A stretch of DNA of 60,567 bases, taken from the NCBI GenBank assembly GCA_964354025.1, contig CAYGXQ010000002.1:51798-112364 (forward strand). Direction: 5' to 3'. Under the pieces are notes generated by a model. That model had not been told where the DNA came from. It ran no database searches and saw only the letters and a program-made list of their open reading frames with translations. The DNA is from an uncultured Gammaproteobacteria bacterium. Lineage in GTDB: Bacteria > Patescibacteriota > Microgenomatia > 2-02-FULL-39-11. The position numbers and the translations under genes are program-made. Of the stretch, positions 8,624 to 59,968 are shown piece by piece; position 1 is the first letter of the stretch, and every line of letters starts with the position of its first letter.

Positions 8624-8655
8624 GAACAGGAATAGCGCAATTTATTGCGCGCCTT
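8624..8655. repeat. REP-like family B copy
   Basis: GAACAGGAATAGCGCAATTTATTGCGCGCCTT, with palindrome GCGCAAT/ATTGCGC. Confidence 0.75.
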
Positions 8656-8675: not shown

Positions 8676-8706
8676 TTGACATCGCTAATTTTATTTGTGA
8701 TAGAAT
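8676..8706 (+). promoter_or_regulatory. Sigma70-like promoter for the small-membrane-protein operon
   Basis: TTGACA (8676-8681), 19-nt spacer, TAGAAT (8701-8706). The ATG at 8715 is only 8 nt downstream, so the mRNA is probably leaderless. Confidence 0.45.
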
Positions 8707-8714
8707 AATTATTG

Positions 8715-8915
8715 ATGACAGAATTAAGAGGAGAACCCAAAGTATATTCAGAATTTTTTACTAACGTGGCAGTAGCTTGGTTTTCAGCCGGAGTAATTAC
8801 TCCATTATTTATAAAGCCTACTGATCTATTTGGGTTTTTACCAAGCGCTATCGCCATAGTCGCTTCCTGGGCGTTTCTAAATATTGCTTCTGCGTTTGCA
8901 AAGGAGGTAAAATGA
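8715..8915 (+). CDS. Small 2-TM membrane protein, family member 1
   Basis: SEFFTNVAVAWFSAGVITPLF aligns with AEFLGNFALAWITFGLISPVF (18057..18254) and SEFTANLGLIFFATGVTPLF (58099..58308). The paralogs support the plus strand over antisense ORF 8657..8992. Confidence 0.65.
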   Translation: MTELRGEPKVYSEFFTNVAVAWFSAGVITPLFIKPTDLFGFLPSAIAIVASWAFLNIASAFAKEVK

Positions 8916-9004
8916 TCACTGAGAATATCTGGTTGGCTTACGCCATTGGGATTATTATGAGTAGTATCGTAATTTTTTATGCTTATTTTCACCTGAGAAA
9001 ATGA
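8912..9004 (+). CDS. 30-aa single-TM micropeptide
   Basis: Not in the ORF track (<60 aa). ATGA overlap with the upstream stop; AGGAGG lies 6 nt upstream. Sequence: MITENIWLAYAIGIIMSSIVIFYAYFHLRK. A positional equivalent is at 18259..18363. Confidence 0.5.
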   Translation: MITENIWLAYAIGIIMSSIVIFYAYFHLRK

Positions 9005-9011
9005 GGAATTT

Positions 9012-9095
9012 ATGAATATAAATACTATTGTTTATATCCTGGCTTTTGTTTTGGGCGCGGTTGCTTTCTACATTGCTTTCTTTAAAATAAAGTAA
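9012..9095 (+). CDS. 27-aa single-TM micropeptide (MNIN family)
   Basis: MNINTIVYILAFVLGAVAFYIAFFKIK, with a GAGGA SD-like box upstream. Paralogs: MNINTVNTILMIIAFILLAGLGYISFAKDRKK (18373..18471) and MNLNWLQTFYIVGALVLLAIAIIAYPTLKSRSKK (57998..58102). Confidence 0.55.
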   Translation: MNINTIVYILAFVLGAVAFYIAFFKIK

Positions 9096-18018: not shown

Positions 18019-18056
18019 ACCTTTAAAGGGTGACATATGTTATTATAAATTTAGCC

Positions 18057-18254
18057 ATGAAAAAACTCAATTTGAGGCAGAAAGGTGTATTGGCGGAGTT
18101 TTTAGGGAATTTCGCTTTAGCCTGGATTACGTTTGGGTTAATATCACCGGTATTTACTAAAATAGATGATCCTACTCTTTTTATCACCAGATCAATCTCG
18201 TCTCTTATATTAACATTCTTCTCTTTAAAATTTGCTCTGGATTTAGTAAAGTAA
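18057..18254 (+). CDS. Small 2-TM membrane protein, family member 2
   Basis: Paralog of 8715..8915 (the ORF opens at 18030). Confidence 0.6.
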   Translation: MKKLNLRQKGVLAEFLGNFALAWITFGLISPVFTKIDDPTLFITRSISSLILTFFSLKFALDLVK

Positions 18255-18258
18255 TATT

Positions 18259-18363
18259 ATGAAAATAAATTTTGATACAGTATATTTTTTCGCTGTAATA
18301 ATGAGTACTCTTTTTCTTTATGGTATTTATTTTTTATTTATCAGAAAGAAGAAGAAAAGATAG
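18259..18363 (+). CDS. 34-aa single-TM micropeptide
   Basis: MKINFDTVYFFAVIMSTLFLYGIYFLFIRKKKKR. Same position as 8912..9004. Confidence 0.45.
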   Translation: MKINFDTVYFFAVIMSTLFLYGIYFLFIRKKKKR

Positions 18364-18372
18364 GCAATAATT

Positions 18373-18471
18373 ATGAATATCAATACAGTAAATACAATCT
18401 TGATGATTATTGCTTTTATATTATTGGCAGGCTTAGGTTATATTAGTTTTGCTAAAGATAGAAAAAAATAG
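18373..18471 (+). CDS. 32-aa single-TM micropeptide (MNIN family)
   Basis: MNINTVNTILMIIAFILLAGLGYISFAKDRKK. Confidence 0.55.
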   Translation: MNINTVNTILMIIAFILLAGLGYISFAKDRKK

Positions 18472-57920: not shown

Positions 57921-57997
57921 GGGGCAATTATAAAGAATTAAGACTCAGGAATCAAGAATTAAACGTCCCGGCATGATTCGGCAGGGTTTTGAATCCA

Positions 57998-58102
57998 TTA
58001 TTTTTTTGAACGACTCTTAAGCGTAGGATAAGCAATGATAGCAATCGCCAGAAGTACAAGTGCTCCTACAATATAGAAAGTTTGTAACCAATTCAGGTTC
58101 AT
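57998..58102 (-). CDS. 34-aa single-TM micropeptide (MNIN/MNLN family)
   Basis: ATGA overlap with the stop of 58099..58308. MNLNWLQTFYIVGALVLLAIAIIAYPTLKSRSKK. Confidence 0.5.
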   Translation of the reverse strand: MNLNWLQTFYIVGALVLLAIAIIAYPTLKSRSKK

Positions 58103-58308
58103 TTTTCTACTCCTTTCAATAATAATAAACTCATAATTAGACAGCCTAGTGTCAATATTATACTTATCTCAAAAATAAGCGTATCTACTTTATTAGCTTG
58201 AGAAAATAATGGCGTTACTCCTGTAGCGAAAAATATCAGTCCAAGGTTTGCTGTAAATTCTGACAATCTATCAAGCTGCAACAAGCTTAGCTTAGGAATG
58301 ATTTTCAT
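58099..58308 (-). CDS. Small 2-TM membrane protein, family member 3
   Basis: LSEFTANLGLIFFATGVTPLF. Paralog of 8715..8915 and 18057..18254. Confidence 0.6.
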   Translation of the reverse strand: MKIIPKLSLLQLDRLSEFTANLGLIFFATGVTPLFSQANKVDTLIFEISIILTLGCLIMSLLLLKGVEK

Positions 58309-58381
58309 CTAAGTCATTATAACACAGTTAAATTGGAGAATTTTTCAGGAAGCAAGGAAGAGAAAAAGTAAAGAAGAGTTA

Positions 58382-59968
58382 TTATTTTTGGCCCATATCA
58401 ATCTCAATAAAAGTAGCCGCTTCTAATGAAACTGGTTGCAACTTAGGATCGGAACAGTATATTGTTGGTTGGGTAATTTGGACACGAACTTGGGCTGATG
58501 TACCGGGTTGAGATGAAATGATAAACGTTCCAATCCATTCATTGGATGGTCCTAGAATTGGTCCTAGCAAATCGCTGCTCCGAGTCATCCTTATATCCGT
58601 ACATTGTGATGCTTTGTCACAAAATTGTGCTTTAGCGGTAGCGTCTTTTAGGGAGCCAGAGCCTCTAACTGTGACAATTCGCTCGCCGTTGCTATTAGCA
58701 TAACTTACGGTAACGATAGGGATATCCGGTTGATATGCCGGTTGCTCACAGACAATGGTCGGACCAGCACATCCACGACTAATATCTGGAGGGTTACATC
58801 CGGGATTTGTATATACTTTATTTATTTTTGTTGTAGGTAGCTTTGCTGTTGGTGTAGCAGTAGTTTCGGGTAAAGGAAGCTTGACAGCTTTTGGAGTACG
58901 GCTCGGAGCTGTAGTGGATGGAATTGGCGGGTGGCCTTTTGACCAGAGGTCAATATTTTCTGGAGGACAACCGATGCCTGAATAATAGCGATATGGATTT
59001 TCCGGATTTTCGAGAAAAACAACCCAGCTTGGTTTTTTCGATTCGTCAACTTCGCACGCCGGAGAATATTTGCCTACTTGTATAGTATCACCCGGATTAT
59101 AATATGGATTCTTATTAAAGGACCATTGCGTCGGGGGGCATGTACACATTCCTTCACGGGGCTGGATGGTTGGATCAGGAAAGGCTGTTGCGGGTGATGT
59201 AGCTGGGATTGTTTGAGATTGATCAGGAGGTTTACCACAACCCGCTGTTATAACGGCTGTTCCTGCCAAGGTCAATCCAAGGAGTCCAACAGCGACCCAT
59301 GGTGGAAACAGCGGAGGAGATTTTGCCGCTTCCGGTTCAGGTTTCGGCTGATGTTGAAAGATTACTGTTGGTTTTACAGCTTGAGTTGCAGAATCAGTCT
59401 GAATATCTGGTTTTGGTAGAAAACGATCATTAACCTCTGTGACTTCATATGCGTCAGTTACAATCCTGCTCAATGACTTTAAAGCGGCGCATTCTGCTCT
59501 TTTAAAACGACTTTGCCATACTCTGGCTTTTTTAGAGCTAGGTTTATGTTTATCGGGATGTTTTTCAGCTCGTAATTTTATCAGCTGTACTAATGCTTCT
59601 TCGAACCTTGTGGAAGCAGGTTCTATCAAAGATGGTTGTTCGTGGTCAAGTGCTTTTGGTGTAGCGCAAAAACGAACAGAAGGACAACCGAGCATGGAAA
59701 TTTTTATCTCTGCGGGTCTGAAAGTCGGTCTACTAGATGGATGTGTCACCATTCGTTCATACAGAGACAAAGCTAATGCTTCTCTGGCCAGATCAGTAAG
59801 GTTAATGGAAAAAGACCTTTCCGAGAGAGCGGTTTGAATTTCTTCATCCACAAACCTATCTCCAAGTCGGCGGGTAATATGTTCCGTCAAACCCAAATCC
59901 GGCTGGATAGCTGGTTGGGTAACAAGAGAAAATGTTCTACCAGATTCTACTTCTGCTAAAGAAACCAT
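58382..59968 (-). CDS. Hypothetical bitopic protein (528 aa): cytoplasmic N-domain, TM, Cys-containing extracytoplasmic domain
   Basis: TM WVAVGLLGLTLAGTAVITAGC at ~residue 225. TATAAT (59980-59975) lies 6 nt before the ATG. Confidence 0.55.
   Translation of the reverse strand: MVSLAEVESGRTFSLVTQPAIQPDLGLTEHITRRLGDRFVDEEIQTALSERSFSINLTDLAREALALSLYERMVTHPSSRPTFRPAEIKISMLGCPSVRFCATPKALDHEQPSLIEPASTRFEEALVQLIKLRAEKHPDKHKPSSKKARVWQSRFKRAECAALKSLSRIVTDAYEVTEVNDRFLPKPDIQTDSATQAVKPTVIFQHQPKPEPEAAKSPPLFPPWVAVGLLGLTLAGTAVITAGCGKPPDQSQTIPATSPATAFPDPTIQPREGMCTCPPTQWSFNKNPYYNPGDTIQVGKYSPACEVDESKKPSWVVFLENPENPYRYYSGIGCPPENIDLWSKGHPPIPSTTAPSRTPKAVKLPLPETTATPTAKLPTTKINKVYTNPGCNPPDISRGCAGPTIVCEQPAYQPDIPIVTVSYANSNGERIVTVRGSGSLKDATAKAQFCDKASQCTDIRMTRSSDLLGPILGPSNEWIGTFIISSQPGTSAQVRVQITQPTIYCSDPKLQPVSLEAATFIEIDMGQK

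Follow-up and report, generated by a model that had tools for sequence, protein, structure and literature searches.

A 60,567-nt stretch of DNA from an uncultured bacterium (GenBank assembly GCA_964354025.1, contig CAYGXQ010000002.1, positions 51,798 to 112,364 of the forward strand; the window refers here to this whole stretch) contains three loci with runs of very short open reading frames (ORFs), the first at window positions 8715 to 9095, and raises the question whether these frames are genes and, if so, what their products do. The organism is labelled as a gammaproteobacterium, and its GTDB lineage is Patescibacteriota, Microgenomatia, 2-02-FULL-39-11.

The frames are genes, their products are partners, and the units that they form are gained and lost like cassettes. 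Each unit spans about 400-500 bp, is transcribed by itself from a promoter of its own, and in most cases is predicted to give a leaderless mRNA. It encodes a two-helix membrane hairpin of 65-69 amino acids (A) and, downstream of it, one or two peptides with a single helix (B and C), which are 27-34 amino acids long. The cassettes resemble toxin-antitoxin (TA) modules in architecture, and it is only from this architecture and from their genomic behaviour that we infer a function; tentatively, and with less than firm confidence, we favor a role in toxin immunity or exclusion.

Micro-operons of the window and their promoters

An earlier note, made on the letters of this stretch, had described the three loci as micro-operons mostly missed by the ORF track, and every ORF that it claimed was found in its place. 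The three A proteins align over their full length with pairwise identities of 28-32%, sharing the motif LSEF..N....W/F...G.I.P.F, and the short peptides of the three loci align as single hydrophobic helices with basic C-terminal ends. The loci are real micro-operons of conserved, translationally coupled membrane micro-proteins with the following features (TM, transmembrane; G001, a genome of the same genus).

8676-8706, plus strand: promoter of operon 1, with TTGACA at 8676-8681 and an extended -10 box (TG-n-TAGAAT) at 8698-8706 that ends 8 nt before the ATG
8715-8915, plus strand: A1, 66 aa, two-TM hairpin (helices 8-32 and 38-65), predicted N-in/C-in
8912-9004, plus strand: B1, 30 aa, single-TM, predicted N-out/C-in; ATGA overlap with the A stop, AGGAGG box upstream
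9012-9095, plus strand: C1, 27 aa, single-TM, MNIN start, predicted N-out/C-in
18038-18049, plus strand: extended -10-like box of operon 2 (TG-n-TATTAT/TATAAA), 7-10 nt before the A2 start and 39 nt past the kinase stop
18057-18254, plus strand: A2, 65-aa two-TM protein
18259-18363, plus strand: B2, 34 aa, single-TM, basic C-tail
18373-18471, plus strand: C2, 32 aa, single-TM, MNIN start
57945-57958, no strand: left copy of an imperfect 14-nt direct repeat around operon 3; G001 has one repeat copy and no operon at this site
57998-58102, minus strand: single peptide of locus 3, 34 aa, single-TM, 'YPTL' class; ATGA overlap with A3, AAGGAG box
58099-58308, minus strand: A3, 69-aa two-TM protein, subtype II
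58316-58324, minus strand: extended -10 box of operon 3 (TG-n-TATAAT), ending 7 nt before the A3 start
58345-58358, no strand: right copy of the 14-nt direct repeat around operon 3, 12 of 14 positions identical

Of the coupling signals reported earlier, ATGA overlaps accompanied by good Shine-Dalgarno boxes are present at loci 1 and 3; locus 2 has short gaps and weak boxes.

A TTGACA-like box and an extended -10 box precede A at many loci of the family. In 33 of the 68 A loci compiled below, a distance of 6-8 nt separates the end of the best -10 hexamer from the start codon, which is the case for 16% of other gene starts in the window's own genome (binomial p = 4e-10). From this position, A is therefore predicted to be translated from a leaderless or near-leaderless mRNA, and B and C via coupling or from their own Shine-Dalgarno boxes. 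A leaderless or near-leaderless mRNA is predicted in particular for operon 1, and a leaderless one for operon 3. The promoter layout of operon 1 is kept in the orthologous operon L062, its closest relative, and the homology between them extends from about 40 nt before the A start to the C stop, so that the promoter travels with the genes. Orthologues of B1 were found in L062, L063, and L067. Adjacent, translationally coupled small genes with a promoter of their own, joined by ATGA in 39 of 66 cases, form the kind of autonomous unit that is expected of TA modules.

Two further observations concern the upstream regions. The share of about 16% was obtained for all gene starts of the genome in a crude scan for -10-like hexamers ending 6-8 nt upstream, in which start codons were not curated; leaderless mRNAs may be common in this genome beyond the micro-operons. 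A 16-nt palindrome, GCGCAATTTATTGCGC, occurs in 15 copies genome-wide, two of them directly upstream of micro-operons (locus 1 and C18); the copy at window positions 8634-8653, which follows the gene for a 1680-aa protein, scores as a terminator-like hairpin of the minus strand.

Distribution, partnership and topology of the three proteins

The window's own genome (G000; 1.48 Mb, 42% GC, 100% complete) was searched with a profile of the three A proteins, which detected seven strong and several weaker copies, and a 12-member A profile raised the number to about 15, each followed by its own micro-ORFs. The three loci recognized initially are thus an undercount of the operons, which are dispersed singly over at least 12 contigs and occupy about 0.4% of the genome. 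When 1.84 billion cluster representatives were searched exhaustively with a profile, 1026 matched at E<=1e-3, and 95 of these also passed E<=1e-10. Their length is 60-75 aa in nearly every case, and there was no named protein or Pfam domain among these matches. In 31 close relatives, A is present in seven genomes (15 matches in G000, nine in G007, which belongs to the same family as G000 according to GTDB, three in G001, and none in most others), and it was detected in 12 of 401 genomes sampled across the phylum. A DNA search with the locus 1 region in the relatives gave no match.

With the subtype-I alignment among the queries for related loci, we compiled 68 non-redundant A loci from G000, its relatives, and public genomes, the latter representing Levy-, Curtiss-, Gottesman-, Woese-, Roizman-, Collier-, and Beckwithbacteria of the Microgenomates group and two Saganbacteria/WOR-1. 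Some operons of the Candidate Phyla Radiation (CPR) stand in third-party annotation records labelled as uncultured Gammaproteobacteria or Pseudomonadales (binchicken and SRP co-assemblies: L065, L072-L075, L077, L080, L081, L083, L088, and L089). L077, which has a label of this type, is identical to G007; such records probably carry an incorrect organism label.

The association of A with small hydrophobic peptides was assessed by searching for an ORF of 22-60 aa with a strong hydrophobic segment, starting between -14 and +12 nt from the A stop. Such a partner follows A in 66 of the 68 loci (97%), in 39 of them with an ATGA overlap, and a third ORF of the same kind lies directly downstream in 42 loci. 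Only six (0.5%) of the ends of 1291 other ORFs in G000 pass the same test (Fisher p ~1e-102). Conversely, B-type and PTL-type peptides in G000 occur solely inside A loci. In orthologous triads of G000, G007, and G001, synonymous differences are saturated (proportion pS, 0.7-0.95), and the nonsynonymous proportion (pN) stays at 0.15-0.45 in each of the three genes, without any broken frame. This large excess of pS over pN places A, B, and C under purifying selection. The checks proposed in the earlier note, namely topology prediction, profile searches, and co-occurrence analysis, thus show a conserved family whose triad recurs in other genomes, and the small ORFs have neither the lack of conservation nor the substitution pattern of non-coding DNA.

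The mean identity within the largest subfamily is 52% for B, 44% for A, and 36% for C, and the outward N-terminal end of B carries a near-invariant W...N.Y pattern in this subfamily. On the tree of A proteins, both the operon architecture (A-B-C or A-B) and the class of the peptide ('NTY', 'YPTL', or 'IAFF') follow the A clades, from which we conclude that A and its peptides co-evolve. The G000 copies of A are spread over all clades of the tree, and each is nearest to copies of other genomes; they are therefore not recent duplications.

AlphaFold2, run on an alignment of 129 sequences, models A as a hairpin whose helices span residues 8-32 and 38-65 (predicted local distance difference test score 82.6). 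The basic N-tail and C-tail of A fit an N-in/C-in topology. In B and C, the N-terminal side is neutral or acidic and the C-terminal side is basic (63 of 66 B and 41 of 43 C peptides), which fits N-out/C-in. The best-conserved parts of A are the juxtamembrane LSEF segment and helix 1 over its whole length (AAWF..G.I.P.F), and helix 2 is poorly conserved. These data strongly suggest the topologies given above and the assembly of A, B, and C into one membrane complex; the three proteins would act within the bilayer, because their extramembrane mass is negligible. As regards a possible VirB2-like pilin, A has no signal peptide, and pilin genes of the type IV secretion system kind were found among its neighbors in two of 150 cases. 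The search found no longer fused forms of the A family, which is weak evidence. The only apparent A-B fusion, P0174, has a W exactly at the junction and was rejected, as it probably reflects a TGA codon read as Trp in a code-4 gene call.

Gain and loss of the cassettes and their neighbors

The nearest homologous loci share the operon only, not its flanks. The orthologous flanks of G000 and G001 are 86-92% identical at the DNA level, and in five of five testable loci the operon of G000 is missing from the corresponding site of G001. After the pyruvate phosphate dikinase (PPDK) gene, G001 lacks the operon and retains a 63-nt remnant of the C gene 1 kb away. Between the L33 and 528-aa protein genes (locus 3 of the window), G001 has 67 nt, in which the 14-nt direct repeat bordering the G000 operon is present as a single copy. 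The segments inserted in G000 only are 1.76 kb at the rpsO site, where a 416-aa gene is also included, and 1.9 kb at the holB site; at the nucleoside phosphorylase site the operon is likewise missing in G001. The reciprocal case was also observed: G001 has an insert of about 500 nt with a HicB-like gene, an overlapping A gene, and a PTL peptide at a site that is empty in G000 (C3:18920-18935). The operons thus behave as mobile-like accessory units that are gained and lost independently of their flanks, and their patchy distribution, multiple copies, and rapid gain and loss constitute the accessory behavior typical of TA modules.

Direct repeats are clear at the C8 operon, weaker at locus 3 (14 nt) and at C7, and most copies have no clear repeat. 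At C8, a 34-bp repeat (32 of 34 positions identical; L004:1404-1437 and 1905-1938) brackets the 467-nt operon; it starts at the vapC stop and has no further copies in G000. A site-specific (integron-like or att-flanked) gene cassette would be expected to have such repeats, an empty site in relatives, and a recombinase.

Several observations on mobile or acquired DNA were made at these loci. The A gene of C7 is interrupted in the inter-helix loop by a miniature inverted-repeat transposable element (MITE) of about 130 nt (L059:5503-5633; G000 C7:49502-49632), which brings in a stop codon. The element has terminal inverted repeats of about 18 nt (GGTAACCGTTCAGGAGTT and its complement) and a 7-nt target duplication, CCCTTTG, and its core is a widespread 'RYARND'-type hairpin repeat. 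A sequence of about 108 nt at L060:8206-8314 (G000 C15:29203-29312) matches at least seven G001 contigs with 79-89% identity and looks like another dispersed repeat family. The PPDK gene (L058:3517-6381; G000 C4) was found, among 21 genomes of the family, only in G000 and G001, and it may itself have been acquired.

The earlier note had also placed each operon beside a large unknown or signalling protein. This connection is not borne out: the neighbors differ at every locus, and all-versus-all clustering of 365 neighboring ORFs revealed no recurrent partner, no family being present at more than three of the 68 loci. Since no neighbor recurs, the proximity of such proteins in the window is coincidental. 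Pfam assignments for the G000 flanks include an alanyl-tRNA synthetase-like/Pth giant protein, a soluble histidine kinase, an M20 peptidase, L33, S15, the DNA polymerase III delta' subunit, PPDK, pyrimidine-nucleoside phosphorylase, RHS proteins, a LamG giant protein, a VWA protein, and a DUF4143 ATPase. Three type II TA pairs (VapBC, BrnTA, and the HigB-like Gp49/HTH) lie directly beside G000 operons, and an MNT-HEPN cassette is also among the adjacent genes. In a Pfam tally of 150 neighbors, the commonest domains, of TA or mobile types, were AbiEii, Polbeta/NTP_transf_2, PIN, HTH_3, and LAGLIDADG, with two or three cases each; there was one integrase, and the remainder were assorted housekeeping genes.

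Three individual neighborhoods were recorded. In G001, a 62-aa gene with a HicB-like antitoxin fold (Pfam E=1.3e-5, just below the cut-off) overlaps the A start by about 30 nt (L024:755-1240, G001 C213), and there is no hicA beside it. At L119:1720-1809 (G000 C3:24219-24308), an orphan C-like TM peptide of 29 aa, matching the C profile with E=6e-7, is encoded from 3 nt past the stop of a TumE toxin gene in a gene pair that resembles a tumA-tumE operon, so that micro-peptides of this family can be added to a classical TA pair. Finally, the 528-aa bitopic protein beside locus 3 (window 58382-59968) has a 529-aa positional counterpart in G001 C209 with about 23% identity, and the adjacent L33 and 190-aa genes have about 83% DNA identity between the two genomes. 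The 528-aa membrane or surface protein is therefore evolving very fast.

Possible function and relation to known systems

The architecture of the cassettes suggests how a toxin-immunity or exclusion function could operate. Most likely, A and B/C would form a hetero-oligomer of three or four helices within the cytoplasmic membrane, with both ends of A and the basic tails of B/C facing the cytoplasm and the conserved N-terminal end of B and the outer half of A helix 1 facing outward. In size, hydrophobicity, and the possession of a basic tail, B and C are similar to the small hydrophobic toxins of the Hok/Fst/TisB type and could act like them, whereas A, encoded upstream and presumed to be more abundant, would neutralize the downstream peptide or peptides within the bilayer. 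Such a module could serve addiction, or the exclusion of phages or competitors through controlled membrane permeabilization. The higher conservation of B compared to A in the largest subfamily is one more TA-like trait.

A number of observations weigh against this proposal. No homology of the family to a known toxin, antitoxin, holin, bacteriocin, or defence protein was found, and tblastn searches of phage and plasmid records and an IMG/VR scan gave no match to it. There was no recombinase near the loci, the single integrase among the 150 neighbors notwithstanding, and no transfer mechanism was identified. TA genes are a minority of the neighbors (about ten of 150), and CPR genomes are rich in TA genes anyway. 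In C7, the A gene is broken by the MITE and the downstream peptide gene is intact, which is awkward for a potent toxin; loss of translational coupling could silence this peptide. Finally, the strong conservation of the outward N-terminal end of B across phylum-level lineages fits binding of a ligand or partner as well.

In an alternative that we consider nearly as likely, A, B, and C form a non-toxic small membrane complex with a physiological role: a channel for ions or small solutes, a unit binding lipids or envelope precursors, or a subunit that modulates larger membrane proteins by docking onto them. A precedent is provided by well-known single-TM proteins of small size that modulate kinases and transporters, such as MgrB, KdpF, and AcrZ. 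The wholly intramembrane nature of the proteins, the conserved polar and aromatic residues in A helix 1 and in the outward end of B, the strong purifying selection on all three genes, and the coexistence of ancient, divergent subfamilies in one genome are in agreement with such a role; the many paralogues would be accounted for if each served a different partner or condition. However, no neighbor family recurs, many complete genomes of the same family do without the operon, and its near-total turnover between genomes of one genus would be unusual for a physiological subunit.

Two further alternatives fail specific tests. Leaderless and two-peptide (class IIb) bacteriocin loci have small membrane immunity proteins, and two leaderless peptides of about 30 aa next to a small two-TM protein, in multicopy, patchily distributed units with their own promoter, could by analogy be released to kill competitors or host cells, with A as the immunity protein. 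We consider this improbable, as B and C have the form of classical TM segments, with some 20 hydrophobic residues in a row and basic, positive-inside C-tails, and not that of cationic amphipathic peptides, no ABC exporter or other export gene lies beside any locus, the putative immunity gene comes first, in reverse of the order in known loci, and many loci encode a single peptide only. Even lower is the probability that A is a class II (two-TM) holin or pinholin with antiholin-like peptides, encoded in remnants of phage lysis cassettes. The size and N-in/C-in topology of A match class II holins, and the cassettes lie in variable regions, but no endolysin or phage gene is found beside any locus, there is no PHROG match, neither 50,697 phage records nor IMG/VR contain the family, A lacks the long charged tail typical of holins, its C-tail being very short, and 15 copies per 1.5-Mb genome are inconsistent with prophage remnants.

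Chance ORFs in AT-rich intergenic DNA, or non-coding elements, could be suspected from the shortness of the ORFs and from the fact that gene callers mostly skip B and C, but conservation already rules this explanation out, and we assign it practically no probability: the 68 loci from several candidate phyla agree in frame, length, topology, and motifs, pN is far below pS, the adjacency of A and its partners stands at 97% against 0.5% in the control, and there is no Rfam family at the loci, where no search aimed at antisense promoters or RNA structure was made.

Scans of A, B, and C against Pfam, NCBIfam, PHROGs, and PADLOC assigned no family, and a PDB sequence profile search and Foldseek with the AlphaFold2 hairpin returned non-specific helical hairpins only, which are uninformative. 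The sole named lead, in both ESM-Atlas look-ups, was DUF6722 (PF20482), an uncharacterized family of small two-TM proteins similar to A in size and helix layout, which none of the papers searched mentions. Although 18 of 129 A proteins match it weakly (best E=1e-3), A was not accepted as a member, the matches being below the gathering cut-off of 27 bits and the G000 copies scoring at most 14 bits. The best DUF6722 score in G000 (21.4 bits against 27) belongs to a 75-aa two-TM ORF on the minus strand (L050:7627-7851; G000 C8:27624-27851), located 1.4 kb from the C8 micro-operon and lacking a downstream TM peptide; a search of 5.8 billion proteins returned only this ORF itself. Patescibacteria-specific defence genes described previously are ldgA and ddgA (PMC12366544).

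The cassettes may even represent an unrecognized class of conflict modules made solely of membrane micro-proteins, that is, a three-component intramembrane toxin-immunity or abortive-infection system apparently specific to Microgenomates-type CPR bacteria and a few other groundwater lineages, which would spread on leaderless, promoter-bearing cassettes of about 450 bp without a recombinase of their own, although we regard this full version as doubtful. The CPR comprises a large share of bacterial diversity, and most of its genes are unexplained; with the present analysis, at least three linked genes for micro-proteins are recognized as a well-supported family, and two of these genes have about 30 codons and normally escape annotation. 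Whatever their function, the cassettes can serve as clean markers for events of gain and loss, as cases in which leaderless expression is predicted in Patescibacteria, and as useful tests for the annotation of small ORFs. If a membrane toxin-immunity or exclusion function is true, they would extend TA biology to an all-membrane, protein-only format and offer a handle on conflict systems in organisms with few known defence systems.

Among known systems, the bacteriocin loci of the class IIb and leaderless types (enterocin L50, aureocin A70, and lactococcin G) are similar to the cassettes in combining two peptides of about 30 aa with a small membrane protein and in being multicopy accessory loci. 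The cassettes differ from them in having TM anchors instead of amphipathic cationic peptides, in the absence of an exporter, and in gene order.

The toxins of type I TA systems (Hok/Sok, Ldr, Fst, TisB, and Ibs) are small hydrophobic peptides and, like those of the cassettes, single-TM products of 20-50 aa with a charged C-tail. Their loci are similarly multicopy, patchy, usually unannotated, and intergenic, with their own promoter and fast turnover, and in mok-hok translation of the peptide is likewise coupled to an upstream frame. In the cassettes, however, no antisense RNA antitoxin is evident from the Rfam search of the loci, the upstream frame encodes a conserved two-TM protein under purifying selection, a second peptide is often present, and there is no sequence similarity to type I toxins.

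The type II TA systems (VapBC, BrnTA, and HigBA) contain a DNA-binding antitoxin domain and an enzymatic toxin, neither of which is present in the cassettes, where all components are membrane micro-proteins. Nevertheless, the cassettes share with type II systems the neutralizer-first gene order, if the role of A is as proposed above, the 4-nt ATGA overlaps, the autonomy of the unit, and the presence of many divergent paralogues per genome, and the two kinds of module stand side by side in variable regions.

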